DNA of 64,000 bases from Eledone cirrhosa. Lineage: Eukaryota. Below the pieces are notes generated by a model that had not been told where the DNA came from, searched no databases, and was given only the letters and a program-made list of their open reading frames with translations. Made by a program: the position numbers and the translations under genes. The stretch covers positions 90,210,001 through 90,274,000 of the forward strand of contig OZ024741.1 of NCBI GenBank assembly GCA_964016885.1. Direction: 5' to 3'. Shown piece by piece: positions 21,168 through 52,935 of this stretch. The first letter of the stretch is position 1. Each line of letters opens with the position of its first letter.

Positions 21168-21442
21168 AGAGTCAGGACCTCGACGACTGAGCTCCGGCCT
21201 TTTCGACCGCTAGATCCGAACATATATATATATATTCGTGTGTGTGTAATATAACAGTAAATATAGTGAAGGCTATATGAAGTTGTTTATTAATTTAGTT
21301 ACCATACATATTTCGCTGGAGTCGACTATTAGGTGGCCGTAAAATTGTTCTGTATGCAAATGAGGCTAATCAGCCGATGTATACATCTGAGAATACTATC
21401 TACTCACAGCAGTTCCTGTGGGTAGCAGAGACGAGAGAATAC

Positions 21443-21487
21443 ACAATCTCGATAAGGAGTAATAACTCCGAAACAATTGTCGATTGT
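21443..21487 (+). ncRNA. Hammerhead variant (TCGATAA core, U3-A8)
   Basis: ACAATC-TCGATAA-GGAGT(AATA)ACTCC-GAAA-CAATTG-TC-GATTGT. Helices I and II are perfect and helix III is palindromic. Confidence 0.75.
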
Positions 21488-21909
21488 TTTCTCCCATCTA
21501 CCGCTGGAACAAAAGGATGACGATTAGTCATTTAATACGTAGTGTTTTATGAGACTATTTGCTTGCAAACAAACCGAATATTAATAATATTATAATATTA
21601 TATTATTGTTAATTGGCAGTATTGGTAGAAGGTTGGCGCCATGCTTTCTAGCATAGTTACGTCTGAGTTCAAATCCCGCCGAGGTTAACTTTGCCTTTCA
21701 TCCTTACGGGGTCGATAAAATAATGTACCAGTAATGTACTGGGTAATTGCTGGCCTTGTGTCTAAAGTAGAAACAATTATTATATTATTGTTATTATTCA
21801 CTCACGAATACATTTAGTTATCCACCATGTTAAGAGCGAAAACAAATCTTTTTTTTATTTTTAAATATAATGTAATAATATATATATATATATATATATA
21901 TGTGTATGT

Positions 21910-22075
21910 AAAAGGTAAACAGAAATAACAACACAATCGGTACAGTATATGGAAGGTATATATTAGGTTAACGCTTGATATAGCAGGAAGAGGGTCTTAA
22001 CGTTTAGTCCTTCATCAGAAGAAAGAATGAGAAATAAAATAGATTGAGGGAACGGGCGGGATGGAATTGGAAAAA
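21910..22075 (-). mobile_element. Short HHR-bearing PLE-type 3' end (family also at 42130-42301 and 52990-53166)
   Basis: Three homologous copies next to microsatellites. The HHR here has a helix II deletion. Confidence 0.7.
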
Positions 22076-22874
22076 ATGTCTTTAGATAAAAATAACAGGT
22101 CTATTCATGTTGACATCTCACAGCGTGAGTACTTGTCTTCCTTTCCTATATCTAAATTTGATAATTCTAAGCCAAGTCTACTGAACTGAATAAGTTTCGC
22201 CGATGAGATATATCAAAATAGAAACATGTTCCCTGGTTTCATTGGTTTGTGTATAAGGTAGGAATACCTTTTTACTAAATGGCTCTCTCGAGCAGATTCC
22301 TTCAACCAAATCACACCCGTAAGGCACTGGTGAACCCAAAGCTACAGTTGTCTACTACTGTAGTCGTGGCTTAATCTTGGGGCAATTGGCCAAGATGACA
22401 TCCAATAGAATTGAACCCAGAAACACCGGCCTGTGGAGTGAACAGCTTAACTATACGGCTATACTTGCGACTTTGCAAATTCAAATGACTTGGACACGCG
22501 TCAGCTAATTAAGACGTTATATGCGAAGCCCGAGGGCTTATCTAAATTCCATTGGCGTTAAGCATCTGAGAGTACAATACCTTTGACAGGACACCACTCA
22601 GTCGTAGCTTTGACACCCAGCTGTTGCCGGTACTAACTTTCAGACTGGAGCAATGTAAAATTAAGTGTTTTGTTGAAGTATACTACATGCTGCCTATTCC
22701 AGGATTCGAACCCACGACATTAAGATCGTGAGCCCAACACTCTAACCACTAAGCGCAAGTTTTCACATGCTGAAACAAACAACGATTATTCAGGCAGGGG
22801 GTTGGAAATTTCGCAAACATGTATTAATAGAGATGTACTATGAGAAAGTTAAGACTATACTGACAGACTATTTC

Positions 22875-23005
22875 TTAAGAAATAGAGCAATTCTTAAGAA
22901 TGCAACAATAGATCAATTCCTAAGAATGCATTCATAGACCGATTCTGAAAAATGCACTAATAGATCAGTCCATAAGAATCTACTGATAGACAAATTCTTA
23001 AGAAT
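22875..23005. repeat. 26-bp minisatellite (~5 diverged units)
   Basis: AAGAATGCAACAATAGATCAATTCCT-like units in tandem. Confidence 0.75.
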
Positions 23006-23264
23006 AATCAAACATAACAACATAGCATAATCATTAGGAAATAAGCTATATCTTTGTAAATTAAGATGTTATTTTCTATATAAGCTTAATAGCTTAATAA
23101 GAAATGATTCGTCATAATAACACAGCGACTAGAGACAATTACAGTCAGACCAGAGACAATCATAGTCAGTCGACAATTTAAAACTGTTCTAAAACACTCA
23201 AGCCAGTTCAGTATCACCTGCAATCATGTTGCCAAGAATTGTGTGTGTGTGTGTGTATGTGTGC

Positions 23265-23305
<41 letters not shown>

Positions 23306-23380
23306 GGAAAATTTGAACAGGAACAAAACAGAGAGGCAGTACAACGAATGTTTATTAATTTAGAGTGGGGTGGTGGTGGG

Positions 23381-23416
23381 GAACGACGTTTCGGACATAA
23401 GCCCTTCCTCAGGTGA
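23381..23416 (-). ncRNA. Minimal hammerhead ribozyme
   Basis: CTGAGGA-A-GGGC(TTAT)GTCC-GAAA-CG-TC. Helix I is short. Confidence 0.65.
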
Positions 23417-23706
23417 GAAGTGTGTGAGAAGAGAGTTCAAAGGGTGTGTAGGGGAGTGGTGGAGATACATATAGCGAAAAGGGGGTGGGAGGAAACGGTG
23501 CGAATGAAATTAAAGATAAAAATAAAAATAAAGCATGATCAAAATGAAATGAAATGAAATAAAAATAAATATAAAAGCATGATCAAAATAAACTGAAATT
23601 AAAAAGGGGTAAAACAGGTGGTGGAAGGGTGTGGGGTGCGTAGTGGTGGTGGCGGGTGGAGTGGGGAGAGGGAGACGGGGTGTCCGAGCGGGGAGGGCTG
23701 AAGGTG

Positions 23707-23743
<37 letters not shown>

Positions 23744-24887
23744 AAAGCAAGGGTTGGGGGAAGAACGGGGTTGCATGTTAAGGAAGAGGTGTGTGTGGGG
23801 TGGGGTGTAGGTCGGAGTGCGTGTGTGGATAGAGGGGTGGGGGAGAGGAATCCGGAGGCTGAAGGTGTAAATATGTGGTGGAAAGCACGTGTGTGTGGGG
23901 TTTAAGCGTGTTGTGGGTGTAGGTGGCGTGTGGGAGAAAAAAAAATTTTTTGGGGTGTGTGTGTGGGTGAGTTATATAGGTGATTCCGTAAGAGGATGTG
24001 GTTGAAATGTTGGTAAACTCCTATGATGGTAGTAGATTCCACGGTGGTCAAGTTCCACATACGAGTATTCCATGAAGAGATGGTCGGAAGAGGAGAGATG
24101 TGGAGTGCGCGCGCAACAGGAAATGGTCAAGGCGGTGGGAGTGCTGTGTGTCTGTTTGTGCTGGGAGGTGGTCAGAGGGCATAGCAGCAGTCGGGTGGAA
24201 TGGTAAAGGGCTGAGGATGGGTAGGTGTGAAAGTTGGAGTGAGGAGGGTGTGTGTGTGTATTAGTAGAGGTGTTAGTGGGATGAGTGAGTGTGGAGAAAG
24301 GGTGTGGGTGGAGCGGGGAGAGAAGGGTGTGGGGGTCGATGGCGGGAGTGTGGTGTACTGGTGTGTGTGTAGTTTGATGAAGGGGGTGTTAGTGGATGTT
24401 AGTATACGGGAGGTGGAGAAAGGGTTGAATGCAGGTGTGAGTGGGGGTTAGTGGTGGTAGGGTGTGTAGAGTTGGTGGTGTACGAGGTTGTGTGGGTACG
24501 TGTGCGTGGGGTTGGGGGTGTTAGTGATGTTAGTTGCGTGTGGGGTGGGTGGTGTAAGTGGGTGCGTGTGTTCGTGTGCTTGGGGTCAGGGGGTGTTAGT
24601 GATGTTAGTGCGGGGTGGTGGGTTGGAGGTGTGGGGGTGAGGGTTAGTGGTGGTAGTAGGGTGTGTGTTTAGAGTGAGCGCGTGTATATATGTGCCGGTG
24701 GGTGTGTGCGTGTGATAAGGAGGGGGGGGGGGAAGAAGAAGGGAGGTATGTTAGTTGGGGAAGGGTGGTCGATTGAGGGGTGGAGTGGAGGTGTTAGTAT
24801 TGTTAGTTGTGGGGTGGGCGGTGAAAAGGAGGGGTGTGTTAGTGGTGTTAGTGGAGGATATGTGTGGGGGAGGGGGGCAGTCGAAGG

Positions 24888-25585
24888 CTAAAGGAATAAG
24901 GGTGGGGAGTTCAGGCCGGGGGGAGTGTGGGTCTGTAAGATGAAGATGGTTCTTTGTTCGACTCTGAGGAGATTGGCGGGTGTTCCGTGGCATTGGAGTA
25001 GGCCACAGACTGTGAGATGGCGTGCGGAATGTCCAGGGGCACCAAAGTGGCGGGCGATGGGGGAACTACCACCGAGACGAATATCCCGGAGGTGCTCAGT
25101 GAATCGGTCCGCCAGGCGACGTCCCGTCTGTCCGACGTAAGTCGCGCTGGACTCCGTGCAGCGAAGTCCGTAGACTAGCTTGGAGGAGGTGCAGCGGAAG
25201 GCATGCCGGACAGAGAGAGAGTGGCCGTTGGGACCCTGGAAGGTGGTGGTGTTGGTGATGTGGGGACAGGTGTTGCAGCGGGGCCTAGAATAGGGAAAGG
25301 AACCGGGGGGAGGGAAGAGCGTGGGTTGGGGGGTAGGGAGCTGTGGACGAGGAGGGTGCGGAGATTGCGTGCGCGTTTGAAGGAGGGGAGTGGTGGGGTT
25401 GGGAAGATGTGGGAGGTGGAGGGGTCGGACTGGAGGCGTCGGAAGAGGCGGTGGAGGGGTGGTAGGTGATGGGGAAGGGGAGACGGTGGGTGGGTGTGCG
25501 GTGGGGTGAGGGTGGTGGAGCGGTGGACAGCACGGGCGCGGGTGAGATCGGTGTGGACGAGAGAGGGGGGTAACCTCTGCGGATG
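24888..25585 (-). pseudogene. Neptune-type GIY-YIG endonuclease and linker (absent from the ORF track)
   Basis: Manual translation: PITYHP...RARNLRTLLVHS...RPRCNTCPHI...FRCTSSKLVYGLRC...YVGQTGRRLADRFTEH...PIARHF...EQRTIFILQTHTPPGLN. Confidence 0.88.
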
Positions 25586-25768
25586 ATGGCTGCCAACTCG
25601 TTTTCGAGTACGGCCACTACTTTATATCCATGTAGGAGAATGTGTGTCTCTATATATATATATATACACACATGTGGTTACTTGATAAAATACATTTAGA
25701 GATAAAAGGAAGGCACAAACAAGTGACAGTCCCCTCCCCTCTTCAGTTGTCTGCTGGAGGTCACCGAC

Positions 25769-25807
<39 letters not shown>

Positions 25808-25812
<5 letters not shown>

Positions 25813-26407
25813 TGAAATAAAATGAAAACGAAATTTCATTTCTCACTCTTAGTATGGCACTTACTTAAATGTAAGTATGTATGTATACGTACATACATAT
25901 ATGTATACAGACGTACAGTAGCATGCATATATACGCTACTGTACGTATACATACATACTTACATTTAAGTAAGTGCCATACTAAGAGTGAGAAATGAAAT
26001 TTCGTTTTCATTTTATTTCAACTTATCGTTTTCGGTATGCCTGACCGATTTAACTCACTCAATATGCAAATTAGGCTGCTCAGCCGTTAATTTTCATAAG
26101 GAAAGTATATACTTTCGAACGTTCAACTATCTGGCAGATGGGTATACGGTGCTGATGATAGCTAACAAGCTTGAAACTAGTACATCGTTCCTGTGTCAGT
26201 GTTGAACAAAAAGGTGACGTGGTTGCCTTAACACCGTATGGCATAAATTCAGGCTGTTCAGTTTGTTTACAAACGAACAAAGCGGCGTTATAATAAGCGT
26301 CCGCTAAACTGATGCGTGCATATATGTATGTGTACCTGTATGTATATATATATATATATATATATATGCATGCTACTGTACGTCTGTATACATATATGTA
26401 TGTACGT

Positions 26408-26412
<5 letters not shown>
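25808..26412 (+). mobile_element. Retrozyme-like ~461 nt HHR unit with inverted arm
   Basis: Forward unit 25941-26412 and inverted arm 25808-25932. Paralog at 52517-52935. Confidence 0.7.
26147..26187 (+). ncRNA. Type I hammerhead ribozyme
   Basis: CGGTG-CTGATGA-TAGCT(AACA)AGCTT-GAAA-CTAG-TA-CATCG. Confidence 0.75.
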
Positions 26413-26453
<41 letters not shown>

Positions 26454-26459
<6 letters not shown>

Positions 26460-28458
26460 ATATTTGGGGAGGGTCATATTGTTATAATATTGTCAGAAAT
26501 AATAGGTTACTATTTTCTATTGTATACTTTCTTAAAGTATAAAAATATTGAATATAGAAATAAGTAGTGTTACTACAACAACGATGACCTTATATTTAAT
26601 TACTCGTAATTGGCCTATTTACAGAATATTTCCTTTGCCCCCAAAGTTACTTTATCTGGCAATCAATGTTTATTTTTGACCAACGGTTAAAAATAAAGAT
26701 ATAAATATATATATATATATATATAGTCTATCAAAGTTCTTTCGTCACACATCTGTGACATCATCAGTGGTACTATTATGTTTCCTCCCGTTGTATTGTA
26801 ATGCCTACGCTATTTTTATTTTGTTTATTTATTTATTTATATTTCCCTTAGGTCAGTATTGTTTATTTGGGTATGGTTGTTATTATTCCATTCGTCTTTT
26901 CTGTTCAACTTTGGTTTTCTTAGTTCTATCTCCGATTTGCCTACCTGTTAAGTAATTTCTATGCTTAGATTTTAATTTCTATGTTGTCTATATTACCATC
27001 ATGTCTTTGTCTGGCGTGTTCATATAGTACTGAACCGGTTTTGTCCTTTTTAGTTCCCCCAAGTGCTGGTCTAGTCTTTCTCCTATGCTTCGTCATGTTT
27101 CTGCAAGTACCCTCTGTACATCTTATGCTATAGGCTACATTTCTAGTTTTACAATTTATCTGGGGGTTCATTCTACATATAACACATTTCTTATTCGTAC
27201 AGTGGGTTTTCTTTCCGATCAGGGATTTTATGGTAGTTCCTGGCTTTTCTACCACTTTAATCTTTAGCTGGGCCTTTCTACATTGCTTAGCTAATTTCCC
27301 TCCAGGGATAGCATCCACGAACATGACACTCTGGTATCTTTGGTTGTCGTACCATGAAGTGGATTTCTTTATCTTATGTTTAGTCCTATCTAAGCTATTC
27401 CATGATTTTCCCCTGTATAATGGGCAAATTCCTTTCGTGACCATTTCTATGAGGGTCTTATATTTCTCCGTGGCTCCTTTGTATACTCTGATTCTGTCTC
27501 TTTGGTTGTTGCCAGAGAACTGCATTTGGTTGATGAAGTGTTGGATGTCTCTTTCCATTTCAGTTGGGTCGCACATGCAGGATACATTCTTCATCACTCG
27601 TACCAAGTCAGCGATCAGAATATTAAACTTAGCACTATTGGACATTGCTGAGTTTTTGAGTATCAGGTATTTGGAGGCCATGGGTTTAGCATAGTGTGAG
27701 TGGAGACTTTGGCCCCTCTCGTTTATAGTGTTTAACCGGTGTTCCGTGTCTAATGCTGGTACTCTATTGTTAGGGTGTTTGGAAGGATAGTCAATAGTTT
27801 CACTTATATTTTGGTGTATGTAGTTAGCTATCTGCTGGATGCTCTCCATTGTGCTATTTTCTAGGTTCAGGTTTATTGGTACTCTCTTGTGGGGGTGTTC
27901 TTATTACTATATTAATATCGTCTACGTAACGAGAGTACATAACGAGGGCTATGGAGATTTCTTTTAGGAGTTCTCTGAGTCTCCTTTCCCACCACACCAT
28001 AAATAGATTGGCAACATCGCCAGCTATGCTGACGCCAATGGCTGCCCTCTCATTCTGGGTGTAGATTTTTTTCATTAAATTTAAACATATGGCTCTTTAG
28101 GGTAGTTTTAATACTAGCCCCTATTGGATGTGCGACCATTTTTCTCACCTGGTCGTTGTTTTGGGGTGTCCGTATGGCTTCGGTACATCCATTCCATCTT
28201 CCTATGGGAGTCTTTTTAGCCATTGAGGTTATGGTGGGGGGTTTACCTCTTATAGGTCTATTGAGGCAGAAACAGCTAAGGTCATAATTATCTAAGTATT
28301 CAGTGTCATAAGTAAGTTTAAATAGGAGGTCCAGTTCATATGTGTCGACGACGCAGAACTCCACCCCACTCTCACTGATTATTTCCACACATTTTCCACA
28401 GCAAAATCAATGTCAATGGATGGGTACAGGGATACAACATCCATACTGCCTATTATGC
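26454..28458 (-). mobile_element. Degenerate PLE related to PLE-B
   Basis: Frameshifted RT/EN pieces (28050-28388, 27854-28075, 26965-27849) homologous to PLE-B, with the same ATTGTTATATTTGGGGAGGGTCAT terminus. Confidence 0.9.
26723..26776 (-). ncRNA. Hammerhead motif (PLE-A/B family)
   Basis: CTGATGA-T-GTCACA(GATG)TGTGAC-GAAA-GAAC-TT. Confidence 0.7.
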
Positions 28459-28479
28459 ATTATATATACATAATTCTTT

Positions 28480-29095
28480 GTCTCTCTATCTGCCTTTTCC
28501 TTATGCATTTCCAAACGGCTCGACCAAATATTTCAAGGTAATAGTATTATACCCCAGGAGTAACATGTAATTTTTATTTTCATTTGGATTAAAACAATTT
28601 AATACTTTATCTAAAATAATCTACTATAGACAAGTAAACGGATATTTTATAACACGACGACGACGTCACATTTTGTGTATGAGTGTGTATGTATCTGTGA
28701 GTGTGTGTATGTGTCTGTGAGTGGGTTTGCGCGTTCATTACGTACCTTACGCCTTAGCAAGTTCCCTGTTAGAGCCAGTTTTGCTATGACCATACATAAA
28801 GTTCAGGCTCAGAGTTTCAAAGTTGTAGGATTGAATACAAGAGAATCGGTTTTTGCCCACGGACAGTTGTATGTAGGTTGTTCACAGGGAGAAACACCTA
28901 GAAATCTTCATATACTACTCACGAACAGTAAAACGAAGAATCCAGTGTAACTGGAAGATTTTTTTATTGTTTATTTTTTGTAACTCACTCACCGCGGTCT
29001 CGCTTCATACTGTAAAGCAGACAAACATCCAATACAGTCATTTTCTCTTCTACCTGTCTTATCTTATCATTTGTTTACCCTGGTGCATCAGCTAG
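28480..29095 (+). mobile_element. Helitron remnant with PIF1-helicase C-terminal fragment
   Basis: FPVRASFAMTIHKVQAQS..VGL....VFAHGQLYVGCS (28755-28950), and a CTAG|T 3' end at 29092-29096. Confidence 0.8.
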
Positions 29096-29509
29096 TATAT
29101 ATATATATATATAATATATATATATTATATATAATTTATGTTAGGCTATTTACCAATGGATAGAACCGGGAGTTTGGGTTGGTAAACGATTATGCAACAA
29201 ATTAACCAAAGCACTCAACGTTATGCAAATCATCCATCGTAGATGTGGTATCCAGTGGCTGGTGCAGGAACTGAGTAGAGTATTAATTAAAACAACAGAA
29301 GGCCGGACTGGAAAAATTACTTTAGAATTTGAATCCCGCGAAAGCACTATACATATTTCGATGGCACAGTTCTATCATCCGATTATGATGCAAGATTAAG
29401 CGATTTCATCAGGTGTTATTTGCAGAATTATGTAACATTACGTTGAATCCAAACATAGAATAGAAGATAGGAAAAAAATGGAAGATAGAAAACACACACA
29501 CATATACAG

Positions 29510-29625
29510 TGAAGGCGCATGGCTTAATAGTGTATTCGGCTTACGATTGTAAGGTTGTGAGTACGATTCCCGGCAACGCATTGTATCCTTGAGCAAGACA
29601 CTTTATTTTATGTTACTCCAATTCA
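29510..29625 (+). mobile_element. Second tRNA-derived SINE family (TTGAGCAAGACACTTTATTT domain)
   Basis: tRNA-like head. Relatives at about 53470-53735, 58205-58440 and 59170-59280. Confidence 0.65.
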
Positions 29626-29804
29626 CCCCCCCCCCCACACACACACACATATATATTTAAAAAGAGAGAAGAGAGGACGCAATTTGTTACTGGCCTGATA
29701 GTTTTTTTGTTTTGTTAATTTTCTTTTCGCTGTGTGTTATACATGAGAATCAGAAGTATGTATGTATGTATGTATGTATGTATGTATGTATGTATGTATG
29801 TATG

Positions 29805-30144: not shown

Positions 30145-30185
<41 letters not shown>

Positions 30186-34700: not shown

Positions 34701-35277
34701 TTCGCAGCATTTAGTTGGTAGGCATGAAACTGTGGATTGTGAGAGGTGGGGATTATAGGGTCATGCTGCTTGAAGAACGTTAATGATGTTAGCTAAATAG
34801 AATTGGGTTTGGTCGAGATTCGAAACTAATTCGCGTAGAAGACTTGACAACTATCCTCATTTAAACCGTGTTCATTACACTTTGAGCTGGATATATTCTG
34901 TTAAAATGGCATATAAACTAGTTTGAATAAATACTTTAAATAAATACTAAAATAATACATACAAGGAAGCCTTTGCATGGTAACTCAATATGCAAGAAAT
35001 ACTATATAAAAACTTCCCTCAAACCATATTCTATCTTTTCTAAAAACGGGCGCATACATTGGATAAAGTAGTGCTAAATACATTCTCTGAAAATAGGATG
35101 GGATGGTACAAGTTGAAGCGCCTTACTCATACATCTGCTTCAGCGTAGAAGAAATCATTACATACATAAACATACATACATCCATTCATACATACATGCA
35201 TATATACATACATAGATACATATGAGTGAAATTTGTTAGATGGAAACTGTTGTATATACACACACACGTATATATAT

Positions 35278-36000
35278 ATAAATGATATAGATATCCCAGT
35301 AGGTACTAGGTACCCACGGAAATATATATGGTGTCTATAATAGTGGTTGTTCTATGGTACTAATTTGATATACCAGAACTGTAAATATGAGCGGAACAAG
35401 TAAACATTAAACAATCTTTCAAATAAATTAAAATACGATTTAAATATTTACCTCTATGGCACTAGAAGAGGTAAATATTTAAATCGTAATTTAATTTATT
35501 TAAAAGATTGTTTAATGCTTACTTGTTCCGCTCATATTTACAGTTCTGGTATATCAAATTAGTACCATAGAACAACCACTATTATAGACACCATATATAT
35601 TTCCGTGGGTACCTAGTACCTACTGGGATATCTATATCATTTATCTAATTCTCCTTAATGTAGAGAAAAAAATGCTGTATCATGCTGCTATTTCTAGCAG
35701 CATGAAATATCAGAGAGTCTATAATTCCCGCTTTTTCTAACGGTCCAATAAGTGTGTGGGTCATTTTAACGGCTTGATTCATTCACTGGGCAGAGGGTGA
35801 TATATCTACATCTATACGGACTTATGTCTAGTAGATTTGGAAAAGCAATCTGAAGAGCTATATCTTTCCATTTGAAATCCTCTGAATTTCCAATCTTTTG
35901 ATAAGCGAAACCGTCGGTCATGGCACTAGAAGAGGTAAATATTTAAATCGTATTTTGATTTATTTGAAAGATTGTTTAATGTTTACTTGTTCCGCTCATA
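35278..36000 (+). mobile_element. Retrozyme-like 464 nt HHR unit with direct terminal repeat and inverted arm
   Basis: Direct repeats 35456-35536 and 35920-36000. Inverted arm 35278-35455 versus 35467-35644. TA flanks. Confidence 0.8.
35845..35924 (+). ncRNA. Type I hammerhead with large loop II
   Basis: GCAAT-CTGAAGA-GCTATATC...GATAAGC-GAAA-CCGTCGG-TC-ATGGC. Confidence 0.7.
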
Positions 36001-36024: not shown

Positions 36025-37725
36025 TAAGCCACACGGCTTATCCGTGACGATAGATCCTAGCACTAAGACGGTGAATTCCCTGGACGTTACCCTGGAAATG
36101 ACTACGGGCATCCACCGACCTTATTTCAAGCCCAATGAGAACCTGCAATATGTGAACAGGCAATCGAACCACCCCAAGTCAGTAGAAGCAATAGTTAAAG
36201 GGGTATCTAAACGCGTATCCACCCTGTCGGCCAACGCAGACGTGTTCAAACACCACGCCGACTATTATAATGAGGCACTGCGCAGGGCCGGTTACACAGA
36301 TAGCATAGTGTATACCACAGACAGGGAAGAGCCTAGCGCCGAGGCATGTGGATACGGCAATAGGTAGAAGAAATGACCCGGTACTAGCCTCCAAGAACAC
36401 GAGTAGTAACACAGTTCACCTTAAAGACACAGGACCCACAATAGGACAGACGAAGACACACACGGGCGCTGGATCACCCAGTACACGTAGGCAAAAGCCC
36501 GGCACGCACACCACATGCGTCGCGGTAACTAGAACTAGGGACAGGGTAACGACAAGTACGACCGTGGCACCCGTTATAGGAAACACCCGACCTGGTAGCA
36601 GTGGTATAGCCCCGACAACAGCACCACATAGCATTAAAGAGACTAACAGTGGAGCCGACAATACAAAACGGAATACCTTAGTAAGTGAAAGGCATAACCA
36701 TGACGCCCACAGCAGACATATAGATAGAGGCAACATAGGGGACGTAATAATGGGCGGGCAAAACCCGAGACGGACATCAGACCCAAGACACACTCACACG
36801 ACTACACACACACGAAAGAACAAGACTAGATCTAAGGCCGTTACATGGTTTAACGCGTCGTATTCTAAGCATGTACGCAGGAATGTGCCAGGGCTTTATT
36901 TCCAAGCGTTAGACGAGTGTTTCCCGCCGTCGAACAAATACCACAAGATTTTCAACCGCCACACGGTGAAGTTTTCCTTCCCCACAGGACCTGACATGGC
37001 CGACTACATGGCCAAAACCAACGCGGTAAAGATGGGGAATCTCGACCGTCAACCGCAGTGGCAGAATGACCGTCCATCGGATCTCGGAGGGCCCCTCGAA
37101 GACCGGTTTCCAACAACAACCCGGCCCTCGCGGCTGCCGCCACGCCCGCGAAAGGTGATACAATCCAACGCCGGGAGGGAACGAGTGGCGGAGGGGAGAC
37201 GACCTTGCCGGCGGAACAACACCCTGAGAATCAGGAGAGGGACCTAGCAGATCAAGGACCAGGCGTCCGAAATGAACAAAATAACAATGTAACTGCAGAG
37301 CGGGCACCCAGTGCCCCCTGCAGGGAAGATGTCTGACGAAGGGCCTGGTATATAAATGTGTGGTTAGCACGCACAATATAAAGCGCACCTACATCGGCGC
37401 AACATCCACGAGCTTTAAATCGCGGATGTATAACCACACGAACTCTTTCAAGGACCGCAGTAAGAGGCAGTCTACTAGGCTAACGGACCTGGTGTGGGAC
37501 TTGAAAGACAAGGGCACCCCGTACGCCCTTGAATGGAGTATCGTTCTGCACGCGAATGCATACTCGGCTAAGAGTAGAAAGTGTAGCCTATGCCTATACG
37601 AGGCCATGGAAATAGTCAGACTGAAGGATGATGCGGTCAACCTGAAATCGGAAATAATCATGACGTGCAGACACCAGAGAAGGTGCACACTCTCAGCATG
37701 GAATCCACCGGGAATCCTAGGCTAA
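36025..37725 (+). pseudogene. PLE RT thumb plus GIY-YIG fragment (WFN / CNC..CPL type), frameshifted
   Basis: LDVTL, YVNRQSNHP, YYNEALRRAGY, TWFNASYS, KIFNRHTVKFSF, CNCRAGTQCPLQGRCL, LVY...YIGAT, CSLCLYE. Confidence 0.88.
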
Positions 37726-39616: not shown

Positions 39617-39642
39617 CCGAAATAGTGTGGTAGAGACGTAGA

Positions 39643-40104
39643 AAAAAGAAATAGGATTTCGCTTCAAGCATAGCTTTATACAATATGTGAATTATATATA
39701 CTTTTCTCGTCGGTGTAAATGATATACGAAATATTTATACATATTGTATAAAGCTATGCTTGAAGCGAAATCCTATTTCTTTTTTATTATAAGTTGAGCC
39801 AACTTATGCAGCTTCATATGCAAATGAGATTAATCACCTCATTTACATAGACGAGAAAAGTATATATTCTCGCCTGTCTTCTAGTCCAGTAGTCGCAAGC
39901 GGTGGGAGGGACCATCCTGACGAAGGCCAGTTAAGCCTGAAATGCATAGACAGTTGTCCCCCTTGCTTCTGCTAGACATCACCAGAGGGCGTTAGCTGTC
40001 CGGTGTTTGCATAGCTGCGGCTTCCTAAAACCGTATTTCTTTGGATATACGAAATATTTATACATATTGTATAAAGCTATGTTTGAAGCGAAATCCTATT
40101 TCTT
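39643..40104 (+). mobile_element. Retrozyme-like 323 nt HHR unit with direct terminal repeat and inverted arm
   Basis: Direct repeats 39721-39782 and 40044-40104, plus an inverted mosaic at 39643-39722. Confidence 0.72.
39908..39960 (+). ncRNA. Type I hammerhead ribozyme
   Basis: CTGACGA-AGGC(CAGTTAA)GCCT-GAAA-TGCA-TA-GA, with distal GGGAC/GTCCC pairing. Confidence 0.75.
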
Positions 40105-40135: not shown

Positions 40136-40138
<3 letters not shown>

Positions 40139-41742
40139 TGTACCAGGAAGAGGCACCACTGATGCCCTCTTCATTGTGAGGCAGTTACAGGAAAAGTACC
40201 TAGCTAAAAGTAAGCCACTCTACCTGGCATTCGTCGATCTTGAGAAAGCCTTTGACAGAGTTCCACGTGCTATAATCTGGTGGACTCTTAGAAAACTAGG
40301 AGTAGATGAATGGCTTGTGAAAGCTGTACAAGCCATGTATAGGGGAGCAGTCAGCAAAGTTAGGATTAGCAATGAGTATAGCGAGGAATTTAGCGTACAG
40401 GTCGGTGTCCACCAGGGCTCTGTTCTTAGCCCTCTCCTGTTCATCATAGTCCTGCAAGCAATAATGGAGGAGCTTAAGACTGGATGTCCATGGGAACTCC
40501 TGTATGCAGATGACCTCGCACTTATAGCTGAGTCTATGGTAGAACTAGAGAAGAAATTCCAAACTTGGAAGCAGGGACTAGAAAGAAAGGGTCTCAAAGT
40601 CAATCTGACAAAGACTAAGGTCCTTGTAAGTAGACGAGAAAACAGAACTCAGATTCCCTCAGGGAAATGGCCTTGCTCAGTATGTAGGAAAGGTGTAGGT
40701 AGGAACTCCATTCTCTGCCCCAAATGCAAACAATGGGTACACAAGAGATGTAGCGGGATCTCAGGAAGCTTAATTAAGAATGTAGGCTTCACATGTAGCA
40801 GCTGTGCTGGAACAGCAAACAACCACAGGAAACAAGTATCACCAATCTCTGGGAGGGCTCTGTAGAAACAGTAGACAGCTTCTGCTACCTAGGTGACCGA
40901 ATTAGCAGCGGAGGTGGGTGTTCAGAAAGTACAATAACTAGGGTAAGAACGGGATGGAAGAAGTTCAGGGAGCTACTGCCACTGCTAGCTGCAAAAGGCT
41001 TTTCCCTCAAAATGAAAGGCAGACTGTATGATGCGTGTATACGAACAGCAATGTTACACGGTAGTGAGACCTGGGCGCTGAAGGTGGAAGACTTACGTAG
41101 ATTAGAAAGAAACGAAGCCTGCATGCTCCGATGGATGTGTAATAGTAATATACGCGAACTGCAAAGCATAAATGAATTGAGAGAGAGACTGAGCATAAAA
41201 GGAATCAAATGCTGTGTGTAGGAGAGGCGGTTGCGTTGGTATGGACATGTGATGCGTATGACGGAATACAGCAGCATAAAAAGGTGCAGAGCACTAGAAG
41301 TCAATGGAAACCGCGGAGTGGTGAGACCCAAGAAGACCTGGGATGAGGTGATAAAAGCCGACCTTACCCAATTACACCTCTCAAAGGCGATGACACGCCT
41401 ACAGAGTACCCGACCTCCCATGGATACAAGCCGAAACTGAAGCTTATAGACAATATGCCCCCACACCCTCCCACTGCAAAGCGGTCGTGGAGGTGCCACG
41501 GCAAAAAAGCACCCAGTCCACACTGTAAAGTGGACGTGTAGGCGCCACGGAAAAAAAGCACCCAGCACTCACTGTAAATGAGGTTGGTGTTAGGAAGGGC
41601 ATCCAGCTGTAGAAATCAAGCCAGAATCAGTTCCCGTATGAGCAAGACAAGGTCAGCCGACCAGACACTGCCCACAACAGGACAACCCGTCTAACCCATG
41701 CTAGCTGGAAGAACGGACGTAAAACGGTGATGATGATGATGA

Positions 41743-44580: not shown

Positions 44581-44685
44581 ATATATATATACATATGTAT
44601 ATATATATGTATATATATATATATATATACGTGGGAAAGTAAGAAATCGGAGAATAGACCGTTAAAACATGTTTATTTAAAACAG

Positions 44686-44724
44686 CACCTACGTACGTTT
44701 CGCCCAGTTGGGCTTCTCAAGGGC
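44686..44724 (-). ncRNA. Hammerhead variant (TTGAGAA core, U3-A8)
   Basis: CC-TTGAGAA-GCCC(AACT)GGGC-GAAA-CGTACG-TA-GG. Confidence 0.65.
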
Positions 44725-44961
44725 ATAAATAATCAAAAGTGTTCCTTACATTTCTCGGAAAGAGTTTTTGGGGTTAAATCCACGTCAAGGTTCATTGCTC
44801 GCAAAAATAGCTTGTTTTGATTTTGCAGCAGGTCCTTTGGCATACGCTACTTGGCAAATAACTATATGTATCACCTATCCTCCCCTTTTTTTCTCTCTCT
44901 CGATACGTAAATACTGTATATATATATATATATGTATACATATATATATATATATATATGT

Positions 44962-45006
<45 letters not shown>

Positions 45007-45766
45007 GAGGTTATATTTAATTTGTTGGGATTCAAGGAAGCTCCAACCGGTAAGGTTGTCTTTTTTTCAGGGTATGTCAATATTTATCTATAAAACTAAT
45101 CTGTATTGTATTTTATCTGATGAAATCGCACCATAGTTTGCCTTGGTGGCCCTTAAAATATGTATAATAAAATAAATATGGTTTTATAAATATAGTTTCC
45201 ATTTGTTAATATATTGTATATATATATATATACTATTTCGATTGGTCGTTCCATTGTTGTTACTGTCTGTCTGTCGGAACTACCGACAGAAATATATATA
45301 CATTCATATTTTCTTGCAAGAGTATTCTGTCCCTTAGATGTTTGACCAGGATGGTAATTATCCCACGCCAGGTATCTACTGTCAACGATACCTGTTCGGG
45401 TTGGGTTGTCTTGGCTACCTTTTACGTGTCACCATGTGTTGTGCGCTATTGGTAAATAGTCGTTGACCTTACGCTGAGTTCATTCGTCCTTTTGACAGGT
45501 AATGTCATATATACATACATACACACGAATGCATGTATACATACATATAGACATACATATAAACATACATACTGACATACATACACACATTCAATCATGC
45601 TTGACTACTTTGCTGATGTATAAATTCCCATGAAAGAGTTTTGTTTCGTGGTGAGAAACTAATTCTTTCTCTATTAGCGCCAAATTTGAAAATTAAAACT
45701 AGAACATACATGCATGCACACACACACACACACACACACTCAACGTACCTATAAATTACACACGCA

Positions 45767-45813
<47 letters not shown>

Positions 45814-46097
45814 GTATGTATGATGAAGGACATTTTATGAGCCGGAAACATTATTGTCTCCGTAACTCTATCCACGAAACAGTAACATTTACCACTCTAG
45901 ATTATATCTACCTTGACTATCACGTATTTACCACAACCTAACGCTCGAGACCAGTGCTCACCGTCCATTTTGTGTCTGGTCGTTTCTACATTTGTTTTTC
46001 ATGGAGAAAACTGCTGGACTAAGAAAATTGTTATACAAATCATTTCACACAGGTACATATACATATTATTATTATTATTATCATCGTTATTATTATT

Positions 46098-49000
46098 CTG
46101 CCGAGGTTAACTTTGCCTTTCATCCTGACGGGGTTGATAAAATAAAGTACCAGTAATGTACTGGTTAATTGCTGGCCTTGTGCCAAAAGTAGAAACAATT
46201 ATTATCATCGTTATTATTGTGCACTTTTACTCGACCTTATTGTAAACCCCCACTGTCCCTGTCTTTGTATTGTCCCCTACATGTCGGCCCTTGTGGCTAA
46301 TAAATGAAATCATTATTATTTTGCAGAATTTATAGACTTGGACAAAATGCTTTCTGGTATTTAGTTAAGACTTTGTACCATCTGATTTCAAATACCGCTG
46401 ATATAATCGACTATCCCCGCCCCCCAAATTATTGGCCTTGCGCCTAAAGGGCGGTGGATTGGCAGTATCGGTAGAGCATTTGGACAACATGCTTTGCCAC
46501 ATATAGTTACGGCCCTTTACGTTCTCAGTTCAAATCTCACCGAGGTTAGCTTTGTCTTTCATCCTTACGGGGTCGATTACATAAAGTACCAGTAATGCGC
46601 TGGTGTCGATTTACTCGACTTTTCTCTTCCCCCCAAATCGTTGGTCTTGTGCCTAAACCAGAAACCATTATTATTGTTGTCGTTGCTTCGACAATTTCAT
46701 GTGTGTACCCCCTTTTTTGAGGTGTTCTTATTTTTGAACTCATTACATAAACAGAAAGCAAACGCAAATTATCAGTAAATGGGAATGCGATTGTGTGTTT
46801 TTTTACTCTTTTCTAATGCTTAATTACGACTCATTCTTATTAGTCTTGTTGAAGCCATTTCTCTATTAAACGTTGTATATATACTACTATTTGATTCGAA
46901 TTAAAGAGGGCCCTTGCCATTCTGAGTTCAAATCCCACCGAGGTTAACTTTGCCTTTCATCCTTACGGGTCGATTAAGTAAAGTACCAGTAACACACTGG
47001 GATAATTGCTGGCCTTGTGCTAAAAGTAGAAACAATTATTAGTTCCCAAGATTGGCAGTATCGGAAGAGTCGGATGCATAGAGTTACGGCCCTTTGCAGA
47101 CTAAGTTCAAATCCCGCCGAGGTTAAGTTCATCCTTACGGGGTCGATAAAATAAAGTACTAGTAATGCACTGAGATAATTGCTGGCCTTGTGCCAAAAGT
47201 AGAAACAATTATTAGTTTCCCTCTTCAGTACACTGTGAGGAATCCATGATACGTTCAACTAACCTGCTAGAAATAGCAGCCAAATCTCCTTTGAATCATA
47301 CTTAAATCGTCTTAAAATGAAAGGGAAGGTCACATTATAAGTTTCAACTTTCACGTGGAAAGCAAAATCAATGTGGAGAATGAAGTGCTACCTTCCAGCA
47401 AATTTATTAAAAAGTGAATGATATTGGTGAACATGGTCCGAATGAACGGACATACTCTGAGTATACAGCTCTAGATTGGAGAAGGACAACTCGGAGAAGA
47501 CACTTTCCTTGGTGGTCAAGGTGACCATGACTTTTGTGTGTGTGTGTCTGGGGGTGGGGTGTCGAAGAGTGACCCTCGAAAATCTTTAGGTGATTTTCTT
47601 TGTTCAAATGTTATTGTTACTTCTTTAGTTTTTGTTCTCACTATTTCTCATTTTTATACATATCCACAAAACCACACCGTATCGTATTGTAACGTTCTTA
47701 ATATGTTTTCTATAAACCCTTTGTGATTAATAAAGGAACAGCTATTTAGTATTACTGTGGTTATGTTGAAACATTTATAATAATTGTTTCTATATTTGGC
47801 ACAAAGCCGGCAATTATCCCAGTGTATAACTGGTACTTTATTTTATCGACCTCGTAAGGATGAAAGACAAAGTTAACCTTGGCGGGATTTGAACTCAGCC
47901 CGTAAAGGACCGTGACTCTATAATGCAAAGCATGGCGTCCGATCCTCTACCGATACTGCCAATCCACTACCCTTTTATGAAACATTTATAATAATTGTTT
48001 CTACTTTTGGCACAAGGCCAGCAATTACCCAGTGCATTTCTGGTACTTTATTTTATCGACCCCGTAAGGATGAAAGGCAAAGTCAACCTCGGCGGGATTT
48101 GAACTCAGATCATAAAGGGACGTAACTCTATGCTTCAAAGCATGGTGTCCGTCTCTCTACCTATAATAATTGTTTCTACTTTTGGCACAAGGCCAGCAAT
48201 TATCCCAGTGTATTACTGGTACTTTATTTTATCGACCCCGTAGGGATGAAAGGCAAAGTTAACCTCGGCGGGATTTGAACTCTACCTATAATAATGATTT
48301 CTAATTTTGGCACAAAACCAGTAATTGTAGGGAAAGGGAAAGTCGAATATACCTACCCATTACTTGACTGGTACTTTATTTTATCGACATCAGCAGGATA
48401 AGTAAAGTTGATCTCGGCGGGATTTGAACTCAGATCATAAAGAGTCAGAACAAACACTGCCAGTCGTGAAAATATTGGTAATAATAGTATCTACTTCAGG
48501 CACAAGGCCAGCAATTTGAAAGGGAGGGGAAAGTCGATTAAATCTACCCTAGTACTTACTGGTGCTTTATTTTATCGACTCCGTAAGGATGAAAGGCGAA
48601 GCTAACCTCGGCGGGATTTGAACTCAGAACGTAAAGGGCCGTAACTCTCTGCCGACGCTCTACCGATACAGCCAATCCACCGCATTATTAGTAATAATGA
48701 AACCTTCCTTTTTATTACTCTAATAAATACAGTCAGTTACTCTTTATAATTAATTTACCAATTAAACTAATTTCCTGGTGCCACGTAATTTTTTAATGAA
48801 CATTTTTATGTTGTAAGTTACTAAAATGCTAGCAAGCAAGAGTGAAGACTATGCTTCCATTGATAACAATTAAGAATAAAAATCTTCGGGGTTGTCTCCA
48901 CCAGAAAATATTAACTAACACCTAATATTGATTTCTAATTTTGGCGCAAGACCAGCAAATTTAGGGCAGAGCAACGTCGATTAAAATCAACCATGTTACT

Positions 49001-49130
49001 TAACTGGTACTTTATTTTTATCGACCCCGAAAAGATGAAAAGCAAAGTTGATCTTGGTCGGATTTGAACTTAGAATGTAAAGAGCCGGAACATATACAGC
49101 GATGGTATTTTACCCAATAATCTACAAATT
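46098..49130. mobile_element. SINE-dense region, including a head-to-tail array at 47780-48685 (minus)
   Basis: About 11 copies of the major SINE family. Confidence 0.85.
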
Positions 49131-51797
49131 TTGCTAATACAAGTTCATCAAGATTAAAAATATACGAGCTTGTCTCCCCTAATTGTTCCACCAGATAGTG
49201 ATATTAGCTAACCCTTAACATTTTCCCCTATTTTAATGTTGAAACATTGTGAATATTCAAACCACACCTTCTTGAACTATTTAGAGATACTACACCCAAT
49301 TTATTTGTTCCGTACCATTAAAATATATAACTCCCGGACGAAGAGTACTGCACGAAACTCTCAACTCTTCTGTTCCACCCGGTAAACCAATTAATTCTAT
49401 ATTTTAGCAATTTAGAGGAAATATTAACATCTACTAATCGCTTGTCTATCACAGCTCCATTCATGCACATCATTAGATCCTGAATACAAACAACGTGCAC
49501 CTTTCCTTTCTCAAACATCCCCCCCCCCCCCCCCCCAAAAAAATACATATATATAAGTGTAGAATTCGTCCATGCGGGTTTTGTTGTTTTCTGTAGATCT
49601 TTGGCCTTTTATTGAACCTGCCGCTAGCTATCGTGTTTTAGGCGGAGGAAAGCACAGCTATCGTAGGTGTTAATGTGCTTAAAGCGTTGTTTGAACTTTA
49701 CTAGATAAGCATTGTCACTTAGCAACAAAGCTATTCACCTTTATATTGTGAATATCTTGTTGTTTGTTTCCTACATACTCTTCCTCCTCAGATGGCGGTT
49801 GGCTAAGTTAGACTGAACTGACAGGATAGTTGTCTCGCCCCAGGCCAGCCAGAATTGAGCAGACTTATGATCAAAGGTGTTCCAGCCGTGACCATCCCGT
49901 CTTATTATTATTTTTTTTTGCGAATAACCTCCAGACTGTGTACACTTTTAGGACAGCTGTGGGTAGCTTGATCCTGTGTAGGCGTATCTGTGCTGAGGAA
50001 ATAATAAAATCTTTAATTTTATAAATTTATAGATATGCACGAGATTACACTAAGTAACATTAATTAGAATGTTATAATGCACTAATTAACCAGATGATTA
50101 TAATGCTGTAAATATCCTTATAACATATTGGAAGCCACTTATATTGAATTACTATTTTGGTCGTAAAACCGAAATCGTTTTTATCCTGTGTTTTTAGAGA
50201 ACTCCCTCAGCGGGTGGCTTCAAAATTAAATAGTTTTTAATTTACGCACAAGGCCAGCAATTTTGGAGAGAATGGGAAAATTAATTACATCGACCAGTGC
50301 TTGACTGGTACTTATTTTATCAATCCCCGAAAGGATGAAAGGCAAAGTTGACCTCGGTGGAATTTGAACTAAGACCATAAAGAGCCGGAACAAAATATCG
50401 CAAAGCATTTCGTCGGACACTCTAATGATTCTGCTAATCCGCCAACTGGTTTTAAATTTTAATGCGGGTAAAACTTTGCTTACGACCATGTGGTTCTTCC
50501 ACAGTTGGCCTAAAGGCTTTCTCGTAGGTTCAAGACTGTATAGAAGAATAATTCTCAAACATTACATGAAAAACATTGTTCAGTGGAGCTAACATACCTA
50601 ATGTGGCGAGACAAAACAATTTTTATTTAGTAGAATTTACACTTGTGGTGAAAGTTTATGATTACGAAATTCTGGTTAAGGAAGCAACACTGACAGGGTG
50701 ATTTTGACGATACATAGTTCGAACGATAGTTAGCGTAACTTGGTAGCTTGGTAACTTTGATATCGCTTCAAATATTTACTCGTTATCTCTGACCTTTGAA
50801 ATGTGATCAAGCGGTCACAAATCTAGAAAAGGTAACTGTCTTCATGAATGTAAGGCATCTATTTATTGCCACCATAGTTGTATGGTTTTTGGTTCGATCC
50901 CATTGTATTATATACTCGGCAACGGGGTCGATAAAATAAAGTGCTAGTAATGCACTGGAATAATTGCTGGCCTTGTGCCAAAAGTAGAAACAATTATATA
51001 CTCGGCAACTGTTTTCTACAGTAGCATTTGGTCGACCAAAGCATCGTGAACAACATTTGTATATCGGAACAGTACAGAAGCTCGTCGTTGTATGTTTATG
51101 TATTTTTTAAAGTTTGTCTCAGCTATTGTGGTCAGGAACATACTGGAGCACACAAACACGTACATATATATATATATGTGTGTGTGTGAATTTCTGTGCG
51201 TGTGTCTGCTTTGTTTTGTGGCTTTTAGACCCAGACCCCTGGTGGTCTATCACAACAAATGGAATATTTGGAATTAGGGTAACCCGAGAGTGTTTCGATG
51301 CTACTTTGCTCCACTGACACGCAGAACAAATTCGGACCATCCTACAGGACACACTCATACAGTGTACTTACGTTAACAATTACGTTAACAATTATAAGTA
51401 AACCGTAGAATATCGCTCCGAGAGCATATCGTTCTCTCACCACGAAATACGTTTACTTATAAACGATTAGCTACACAACACCCTCATAAAATATGGTATG
51501 GGTTCGAATCTCATCGGAGGTGCTGTGCTAGGTTGTTTCAATCATTCCCCTACTTATTATTGGTTCTTATCACAGCTTTGCTTAATTAAGTGGAGGCCCA
51601 TCATGTTGTAGAGAATTGACGTTGGTGTGTTAAATAAAATAAAAAATATTGCTACCAGTTTTTATATTTTGTATGCAAAAAAAGCAACTTTTTCTTTTTC
51701 ATGCATATATATATACTGATAGATACATTACGAAACATACGCACACTAGTAGAAAAACCCACGGTAGTGCTGTTACTGCTTATATATACATACTGCT

Positions 51798-51846
<49 letters not shown>

Positions 51847-51852
<6 letters not shown>

Positions 51853-52290
51853 GATATTAATAAATGGAAACTATATTTATAAAACCATATTTATTTCATT
51901 ATACATATTTCAGGGATACCAAATTAAATTATGGTATGCCTTCATCAGGCAAAATACAATATATAACAGTTTTACAAATAAGCTTTGACGTACCCTATTA
52001 AAATGCAACCATTGTTTTGGGAAGTCATCCAAAAACAATGGTTGCATTTTAATAGGGTACGTCAAAGCTTATTTGTAAAACTGTTATATATTGTATTTTG
52101 TCTGATGAAGGCATACCATAATTTAATTTGGTATCCCTGAAATATGTATAATGAAATAAATATGGTTTTATAAATATAGTTTCCATTTATTAATATCGTA
52201 TATCTACTCCAAAAACTTGTCGAGTGCTTTATATCAGTTATAAAAAATATTTACTTGTTGTATCCCAACAATTTTAAATAGAACTTTTGC
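51847..52290 (+). mobile_element. Palindromic PLE 3' end (~175-bp arms) with two HHRs (51892-51956 minus, 52094-52158 plus)
   Basis: Arms 51847-52022 and 52028-52203. TATTTTGT-CTGATGA-AGGCATACCA..TGGTATCCCT-GAAA-TATGTA-TA-ATGAAATA. Confidence 0.8.
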
Positions 52291-52516
52291 ATATATATAT
52301 ATAAATTCAAATATTAATAAAATAGATGTTCTTGTGATCAATTAAATAACATTTAATTGATCACAAGAACATCTATTTTATTAATATTTGAATTTTAATA
52401 TTAATAACTCTGGAAAATATTTAACTGTAGAGTGCTTCCAATCTACTGTAAAACTCATTCTTTGATGTAATCATTGAATCTTGTTTAACTCTTCAATATA
52501 TATATATATATATATA

Positions 52517-52935
52517 GACGTATACATACTTATATTTAAGTATCAGCCGTACTAAGAGTGAGAAATGAAATTTCAATTTCATTTTTTCCATTTATCGTTT
52601 TCGGTACGCCCGGCCGACTAACTCACTCGATATGCAAATTAGGGTACTCAGCCGTTAATATGCGTAAGGAAAGTATATACTTTCAAACGTTCAATCGATT
52701 GACAGGAAGGTATACGGTGCTGATGACAAGTCAGAAGCTAGTTCATCGTTCCTTTGTCAGTGCTGAACAAAAGGGCAACGATGGTTGCCAAACACTGTAC
52801 GGCTTAATTTGTTTACAAACAAACCGAACATTATAATAAATGTTCGGTAAAAGCCATACGTACATATATATATGTGTACATGTATGTATATACATACTAC
52901 TGTACGTCTGTATACATATATGTATGTACATATAT
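52517..52935 (+). mobile_element. Diverged copy of the 461 nt HHR unit
   Basis: Colinear with 25941-26412. The HHR at 52715-52748 is degenerate. Confidence 0.8.

Follow-up and report, generated by a model that had tools for sequence, protein, structure and literature searches.

Hammerhead repeats of Eledone cirrhosa as likely retrozymes with a predicted internal promoter of the small nuclear RNA type

A stretch of 64,000 nt from the genome of the cephalopod Eledone cirrhosa (assembly GCA_964016885.1, contig OZ024741.1, positions 90,210,001 to 90,274,000 of the forward strand; hereafter the window) contains four short units with a hammerhead ribozyme (HHR). They are likely retrozymes, namely HHR repeats devoid of open reading frames (ORFs), with an insertion anatomy of the Penelope type and a compact internal promoter that appears to be of the small nuclear RNA (snRNA) type. 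All four belong to repeats of high copy number, with monomers of 324–484 bp (up to 502 bp in some copies of family A) and a GC content of 0.33–0.41. Across the four units no stop-to-stop frame of at least 150 amino acids was found, the monomers abut head to tail, and the architecture is tandem rather than that of long terminal repeats (LTR). By their anatomy the units are non-LTR retrozymes, for which self-cleavage and a circular RNA are predicted. The preliminary description of this DNA had spoken of short non-coding HHR units, and this is borne out. Families of units are designated below by letters from A to H, A' being an older lineage of A.

Predicted promoter module of the units

The octamer ATGCAAAT occurs at positions 21354, 26064, 39818 and 52632, exactly 95, 88, 99 and 88 nt upstream of the ribozyme cores at 21449, 26152, 39917 and 52720, as had already been reported. 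It forms part of a longer motif, TATGCAAAT[GT]AG, whose 12-letter form TATGCAAATKAG we take to be the site of an Oct/POU factor. Six exact octamers are present in the window; the two outside the units (29223, plus strand, and 16432, minus strand) lack the trailing [GT]AG and have no hammerhead core visible at the unit distance in the sequence inspected. Over the 3.0-Gb genome, on which all genome-wide pattern counts were taken, TATGCAAATKAG has 37,404 sites, versus 623 for the same pattern read backward. The core sequence CTGANGA follows 70–100 nt downstream at 27,306 of the 37,404 sites (0 in the control and 330, mostly inversion junctions, with the reversed motif), TATAWA follows 26–38 nt after the motif at 23,001 sites (714 in the control), and the A/F-type hammerhead pattern by itself has 36,959 sites versus 7. 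Coupling of motif and ribozyme by chance is excluded. These counts stem from a few amplified families, and the independent evidence therefore lies between families. In particular, the window copies of A, B and C, which were not selected by the motif pattern, are the same at all but one of the 12 motif positions (11 of 12), as against 5 of 59 positions upstream and 3 of 43 downstream. The conservation of the octamer over copies, which the preliminary description had proposed to examine, is thus evident across A, B and C, whereas within families the motif stands barely above its flanks.

The motif was also found in the small-RNA genes of the host. The pattern TATG[CG][AT]AAT[GT]AG lies at −76 to −79 in seven of eight type-3 genes of RNA polymerase III (Pol III), a class that uses SNAPc and Brf2; the seven comprise three U6 genes, U6atac, RNase MRP and two tRNA-Sec genes, of which MRP and tRNA-Sec were looked up after the pattern had been formed. 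Their TATA box lies at −30/−31 and the spacing from motif to TATA is 46–48 nt. The exception is RNase P (L334:1390–1500), with a U1-like TCAGT plus TATA, no 12-mer and a T9 end. In this tally, copies of U6 arrays were counted once; genes with a repeat inserted in the promoter (L112 and L113), with the octamer at −275 (L119 and L120), or judged to be retrocopies (L124–L126 and U6atac L178–L184) were left out; and genes of the signal recognition particle RNA, which lack the motif, were not counted as type 3. None of 23 promoter entries of U1, U2, U4 and U5 genes has the motif at −76 to −79. These promoters harbor AATTA near −90, a TATA-like element near −30 and, between the two, YCAGT at −55 to −58; in one U4 array ATGGAAATGA occurs at −109. 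Finally, TTAY(C/T)TCCCTT near −260 (−250 to −290) in many U1, U2, U6 and RNase P genes (loci L091–L146, L177, L205 and L334) is likely the distal element of host snRNA genes. Comparison with the host genes thus sustains the earlier proposal of an snRNA-type promoter motif at a fixed distance from the HHR, but not the role of distal element then given to the octamer: because the host type-3 genes carry the motif at −76 to −79, it is proximal in this genome, and in the units its predicted position is −72/−73.

The units follow the U6-type pattern of the host, TATG[CG][AT]AAT[GT]AG and then TATA, with a degenerate TATA in the window unit of family C and in family F (CATATAA). The TATA box, GAAAGTATATA, had not been recognised as such in the preliminary description; the stretches GAAA(A)GTATATA listed there at 26101 and 39855 are correctly placed, and the third begins at 52669 rather than 52670. 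Families A, B, C, E, F and H have motif and TATA 42–43 nt apart (40 nt in a single E copy), versus 46–48 nt in host type-3 genes; the predicted start is an A in A, B, C and F, and only family D combines the spacing of 46–48 nt with a G start. The families with the shorter spacing also have a YCAS box, 16 nt on from the octamer start and at a predicted −56/−57, which would match the position of TCAGT in the U1–U5 genes. The inverted octamer formerly noted further downstream is not conserved, since ATTTACAT in B is a private change relative to the family consensus ATTTACAC, and C has GTATACAT.

Three further candidates were rejected or set aside. The 3' box of host Pol II snRNA genes, AAAATCAGA[CAT], is absent from the units, where the similar AAACCGAAC belongs to a hairpin; the host distal motif has no more than a loose counterpart, GTCCCCCTTG in B, which is also part of helix I; and the sparing of the 12-mer, the TATA and the core (except its free N7) by the common variants in X1, from contigs of runs of unknown kind, at about 17 variant sites, was weak and was not counted as support.

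Units, ribozymes and families

The features of the window are as follows; start sites were predicted from the TATA position of −30/−31 in host genes.

21335–21606, plus strand: family C unit, from the promoter via the HHR to the 3' part; old, with copies 81–87% identical
21353–21364, plus strand: 12-mer TATGCAAATGAG of C
21444–21486, plus strand: type I hammerhead of C, core TCGATAA (U3-A8), helix III CAATTG, predicted GUC cut after 21481
21608–21783, plus strand: dispersed repeat resembling a short interspersed nuclear element (SINE; families D11/D15/D17), inserted in unit C
21775–21862, plus strand: rest of unit C, with a T-run as its tail end
25809–25893, minus strand: inverted, 5'-truncated family A copy with its tail end (about −40 from the octamer)
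25878–26418, plus strand: family A unit of about 1.1 monomers (monomer about 466–500 bp) between (TA)n tracts; top copies 99–100% identical
26063–26074, plus strand: 12-mer TATGCAAATTAG of A
26080–26084, plus strand: TCAGC box of A, in the place of the TCAGT box of host U1/U2/U4/U5 genes, predicted −56
26106–26111, plus strand: TATA box of A, 42 nt from the octamer start, predicted start near 26136
26146–26188, plus strand: type I hammerhead of A, CTGATGA/GAAA, helix III CTAG, predicted GUA cut after 26182
39642–39722, minus strand: inverted family B fragments on the 5' side of the insertion
39722–40104, plus strand: family B unit of 1.2 monomers (324–326 bp) with a 60-bp terminal direct repeat and a T-run end
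39780–39785, plus strand: T6 run 38–33 nt before the octamer, where B insertions have their tail end
39817–39828, plus strand: 12-mer TATGCAAATGAG of B, followed by TCACC at 39834
39861–39866, plus strand: TATA box of B, 43 nt from the octamer start, predicted start near 39891
39908–39960, plus strand: type I hammerhead of B, CTGACGA/GAAA, helix III TGCA, predicted AUA cut after 39948
52500–52938, plus strand: A' unit (older A lineage), 76% identical to the unit at 26064, with a hammerhead from 52720 that lacks GAAA
52631–52642, plus strand: 12-mer of A'
52674–52679, plus strand: TATA box of A'

The hammerheads were identified by hand reading and by script; an Rfam scan of the window returned microRNA-like chance hairpins and no hammerhead among the matches listed (150 of 160). 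Each window unit has a type I hammerhead with a short palindromic helix III, CTAG in A, TGCA in B and CAATTG in C. The core at 21449 is TCGATAA rather than CTGATGA, a U3-A8 covariant with an additional U4C; in 30 copies of family C the core is TCGATAA (7), TTGATAA (6), TTGACAA (5), TCAATAA (4) or another form (8). The U3-A8 variant has been described for hammerheads of Penelope-like elements (PLEs) (PMC4209133). The 3-8 pair of the core is kept across variants, and helix II covaries in F (GTTGT/ACAAC versus GATGT/ACATC) and in C (GGAG/CTCC versus GGGG/CCCC). The ribozyme at 52720 is broken by loss of its GAAA box, and helix I of hammerhead A is predicted to reach about 26133/26198. As a separate observation, the G|GTA just 5' of helix I (window 26139–26145 and 52709–52715; also in F, G and H) resembles a 5' splice site, but could instead serve the ribozyme as its loop-1 tertiary contact.

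The preliminary description had sorted the units into three diverged families. Those at 26064 and 52632 belong to a single lineage (76% identity over 467 nt) and C is tied to A via an intermediate family, while the separateness of B stands, as it aligns to the others over a promoter of about 55 bp alone. In particular, A, A', H and C form a homology chain; B aligns with C and H from octamer to TATA only; F has mainly the promoter and ribozyme in common with A; and D, E and G are separate families. The families differ in age, the top 40 copies of A being 99–100% identical, copies of B about 95% and copies of C 81–87%. A search with the promoter alone brought up the further HHR-bearing families D and E, and the old families G and E stand behind the same 12-mer (L214, L215, L167 and L187), with T-runs shortly after the ribozyme in G and in one E copy. 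Family D (L185, L186 and L274–L303) is an old HHR repeat with a motif-to-TATA spacing of 47 nt, a G at TATA+30, T5–T7 about 13 nt after the cut site and a consensus period of about 356 bp; U6-spaced sites number 219 in the genome, versus 2 in the control, and most of the listed entries among the 219 are D. Since D was selected by the motif, the conservation of the motif within it is circular. As a speculation, D could yield a Pol III RNA of about 90 nt, possibly a trans partner for dimeric cleavage.

Several other repeats were noted in the window. The SINE-like repeat inserted in unit C recurs at about 15 further places in the window, and another copy lies between TATA and start in the two U6 array genes L112 and L113. 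A fragment of a reverse transcriptase (RT) of the long interspersed nuclear element type (40137–40862; RVT_1, E 2.8e-26) follows directly after unit B, and a 181-bp inverted repeat, 98% perfect, lies at 35275–35647. A fifth hammerhead (core 52102), of a type that a long PLE-like lineage has in its terminal repeat, sits in a near-perfect 179-bp palindrome (51844–52206) with no forward octamer; its use as a motif-free control was weakened, as its relatives carry the reversed 12-mer in a region that the window copy lacks. Remnants of PLE-like RT/endonuclease genes lie at 1077–4662, 6153–10277, 26968–27900, 13489–14133, 24891–25616 and 36309–37244. Two of these remnants have long inverted arms, and relatives of 13489–14133 are 96–99% identical with frames of up to 785 amino acids.

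Insertion anatomy, proposed cycle and polymerase

The insertions have the anatomy of Penelope elements, in agreement with the PLE machinery invoked in the preliminary description: partial tandems, inverted 5'-truncated copies, a one-sided tail and microsatellite targets. Flanks are mostly (TA)n, and it was against this background that target-site duplications were looked at. The 5' ends are scattered, whereas the 3' ends, counted by hand with several A loci overlapping, cluster at two set distances from the next octamer: −96 to −100 (22 of 61) and −38 to −47 (25 of 61) in A, −73 to −78 (25 of 61) and −27 to −41 (26 of 61) in B, and −103/−108 (2 of 12) and −34/−35 (8 of 12) in F. A typical insertion has the long-form 3' end on one side and the short form on the other. 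Such a tail at one end is carried by PLE insertions (bioRxiv 2021.04.23.441226, section 6); in the retrozymes it measures 45–70 nt. Head-to-tail arrays reach 31 hammerheads, with F arrays of 31 and 15 (period 466–469 bp; L349–L351 and L355) lying inside single insertions of the PLE type.

In the cycle proposed for such elements, a POU/Oct-type factor would bind TATGCAAATKAG, SNAPc the YCAS box 16 nt later and TBP the TATA box, and the RNA would begin about 30 nt past the TATA, 16–26 nt ahead of the ribozyme core. In arrays of at least two monomers the polymerase would cross the T-runs and the following promoter, after which two hammerheads would pair via the palindromic helix III and free a unit-length RNA with the promoter at its 3' end, which could be ligated into a circle. 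The RT-endonuclease of a PLE would then nick (TA)n, begin at a fixed site 27–103 nt upstream of the octamer and copy more than one unit. As the promoter lies upstream of the transcription start, it would be passed on only by arrays of at least two units; single copies such as those of the window could be transcribed, yet would not transmit their promoter.

Several observations weigh against the reading as retrozymes with a promoter of their own. The strong folding of the circular monomers speaks for that reading, with minimum free energy z-scores of −8 to −11 (−10.9, −10.9 and −8.2 versus 25 dinucleotide shuffles each) and 66–71% of positions paired, but TA hairpins inflate these scores. Within families the motif is hardly better kept than its flanks (0.944 versus 0.911 in C, 0.989 versus 0.965 in B), a weak excess that is as expected of neutrally decaying copies and gives no positive evidence. 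The predicted extended helix I starts 4–14 nt upstream of the predicted transcription start, so that the C|AG conserved at this place may have a structural role instead of being an initiator; this extent of the helix would fit selection at the level of an RNA with the promoter region in it. The long arrays are mosaics in which variants recur with periods of 2 and 10 units (shared at 14 of 20 and at 7 of 14 variable columns), and DNA-level turnover or multimeric templates must therefore have contributed; an origin of the arrays from rolling around a single circle was rejected, as they are not plain copies of one circle. An autonomous partner was not found, the units having no ends in common with the PLE-like families examined. 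As to the polymerase, a sequence profile built from 16 promoters of RNA polymerase II (Pol II) places an offset of 15–17 among the top 3 of 350 in 10 of 13 retrozyme promoters, but the offset was chosen after inspection and F ranks only 32nd; A' ranks 6th and 7th, D and G 23rd to 47th and five host Pol III genes 16th to 187th. Under this profile the retrozymes score −14 to +13, mostly lower than true Pol II genes do (1–30, leave-one-out). Finally, RNase P has TCAGT plus TATA and yet a T9 end and no 12-mer, so that this geometry is no proof of Pol II.

On balance, Pol II seems somewhat more likely than Pol III to transcribe the units. It is favoured by the spacing, the box position, the A start, the T5–T7 runs that have to be crossed, the newt precedent discussed below and the presence of the 12-mer beside long ORFs, whereas the class-specific motif, family D, the tail ends at T-runs and the RNase P exception keep Pol III in play. 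For families A, B, C, E and F we lean slightly towards Pol II, transcription by Pol III with leaky termination being a plausible though less favoured option; for family D, Pol III is the likely enzyme. The spacing of motif and TATA in the units is 4–5 bp shorter than in all seven host Pol III genes. A like offset of 4 bp separates the two classes in Drosophila, where, counted from the PSEA start, the Pol II element occupies positions 30–37 and the U6 TATA positions 34–41 (PMC1761439).

The best-surviving alternative, which we nevertheless regard as doubtful, is that Pol III transcribes the same elements, using their promoter as one of the U6 type (type 3), and that the T-runs at unit ends act as leaky terminators; the templates would be transcripts that run past one T-run and end at the following one, so that the T-run would set the tail end. 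Among the points in its favour, the 12-mer is proximal in Pol III genes only (seven of eight, versus none of 23 entries), family D has the exact U6 layout, tail ends coincide with T-runs in A, B, F and the window unit of C, and the Schistosoma precedent is a Pol III one (PMC6765202). Against it, the spacing of 42–43 nt is half a helical turn off all seven host genes, the predicted start is an A where all eight host type-3 genes have a G, and T5–T7 runs would have to be read through. No T4 occurs between predicted start and tail in four of five monomers, but this absence is weak (shuffle P of 0.08, 0.025, 0.17 and 0.45) and A-runs are also scarce in A and A2; T-run depletion was therefore rejected as proof of Pol III, being both weak and not specific to T.

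The two spacing classes could also be joined in one scheme, which is rather improbable as a whole and is offered tentatively: an snRNA promoter would have been captured and its polymerase switched by the change of 4–5 bp in spacing. The older family D would be a true U6-type Pol III unit ending just behind the ribozyme, while A, B, C and F (more than 27,000 sites) would mix a Pol III-class octamer with the Pol II-class geometry of proximal sequence element (PSE) and TATA, and so cross the T-runs and give rise to promoter-bearing multimers or circles; the module would moreover have moved between unrelated ribozyme RNAs.

The 12-mer is not confined to short units. A long PLE-like lineage, with units of about 4.2 kb and long ORFs, carries it in reversed orientation about 125 nt before its own hammerhead (416 genomic sites), in both T and G forms (L356–L369; e.g. 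L366:610–740 and 4836–4965). This hints that the factor site is orientation-independent and that the module may have originated in such elements. In a young sister PLE-like family the HHR was reached at 11 of 25 loci and the 12-mer at none of them. The PLE label rests here on architecture and on motifs read by eye, as Pfam named none of these ORFs: three ORFs of the long lineage had no match, and three PLE-like ORFs of the window had only sub-threshold matches to RT or GIY-YIG. Both lineages lend some weight to the view that the motif in the units came down from a PLE terminal repeat as a relic or as an enhancer-like POU site, the units lacking a working core promoter and being expressed through host read-through only, and the homology of A, H and C means that part of the motif sharing reflects descent. 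We consider this explanation unlikely, as orientation and TATA spacing are fixed across A, B, D and E, whose transcribed parts do not align, and both match unrelated host genes.

Lastly, the possibility raised in the preliminary description that the units are plain 3' ends, or solo terminal repeats, of long autonomous PLEs is very improbable and largely refuted for the elements tested (three PLE-like families and one lineage): although insertion anatomy equals that of PLEs and a retroelement ORF match lies within about 1.5 kb at 28 of 141 loci, monomers are joined head to tail without an ORF (as in the arrays of 31 and 15 hammerheads), same-strand ORF matches end within 800 nt upstream of the octamer at none of the 141 loci and 810–950 nt upstream at three, the families of those three ORFs occur in other orientations at other loci, and 55 loci of the three PLE-like families lack the forward motif, save one known B' copy, and have a different 3' consensus.

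If the units are indeed retrozymes with a promoter of their own, this promoter can be read from the sequence and compared with the host's own snRNA genes, and its two spacing classes offer a direct test of polymerase choice. If active, the elements would have spread about 37,000 copies of a host U6-type motif, a possible sink for its binding factor and a possible source of cryptic starts. As a by-product, the comparison outlines the promoter of U6, U6atac, MRP and tRNA-Sec genes in this genome, which is useful for small-RNA expression in a cephalopod.

Comparison with known systems

The likeness to retrozymes and to newt satellite 2 noted in the preliminary description is supported. Metazoan non-LTR retrozymes are defined as tandem repeats of about 150–450 bp with a GC content below 50%, and in the species tested they belong to the most abundant circular RNAs, their mode of transcription being left open (PMC7229834). 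In common with them, the Eledone units have a type I HHR, short, low-GC, ORF-less tandem repeats, a strongly self-paired monomer and co-occurrence with PLEs; the mollusc example given in that report is a mussel. The sections of the report drawn on here name no promoter, the word referring to T7 only, whereas the units have a defined candidate internal one; they further differ in their direct PLE-type tails and in A monomers of up to about 500 bp, and are known from DNA sequence. Cephalopods are not mentioned in the main text of that 2020 paper. The suggestion that such elements might be undescribed in cephalopods holds in part: giant squid already has 235 hammerhead-1 hits (PMC6962438), and an account of a promoter or of retrozymes was not found. 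Likewise, nothing on these elements or on the U6 promoter of a cephalopod came up in the literature covered, which excluded most subscription papers and the supplement of the 2020 paper, where cephalopods may be listed.

With PLEs and the hammerheads of their pseudo-LTRs (pLTRs) the units have in common partial tandems, an inverted 5'-truncated copy, a tail at one end, microsatellite targets, a palindromic helix III and the U3-A8 core variant (PMC4209133; bioRxiv 2021.04.23.441226). They differ in having no ORF and in tails of about 45–70 nt, versus 30–40 nt in PLEs (bioRxiv 2021.04.23.441226), and no alignment beyond simple repeats was obtained with the pLTRs examined. The predicted promoter resembles the PSEA-PSEB/TATA arrangement of Drosophila in its upstream and TATA-position elements and in the 4-bp difference in spacing between classes (PMC1761439). 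It differs from U6- and U1-type snRNA promoters in that the module travels in a mobile element and joins a Pol III-class motif to a Pol II-class spacing; with the U6-type promoters of the host the units have the motif in common and, save for family D, not the spacing.

Promoter precedents for hammerhead repeats were found in newt satellite 2 and in schistosome repeats. The Pol III promoter of the Sm-alpha repeats of Schistosoma is of the tRNA type, and the units differ in their upstream snRNA-type module. In the Schistosoma repeats and in the units alike, a promoter is followed by the hammerhead and comes to lie at the 3' end of the cleaved RNA, so that tandem copies are needed to propagate it (PMC6765202). 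Newt satellite 2, which is transcribed by Pol II (PMC2220036), is likewise an HHR repeat of about 330 bp with a dimer-type helix III and an internal snRNA-type promoter (PMC2220036; PMC6765202); it belongs to another phylum, and a promoter of its type would have the octamer as distal element, whereas in the window units the octamer stands 16 nt from a PSE-like box and is joined by a TATA box.

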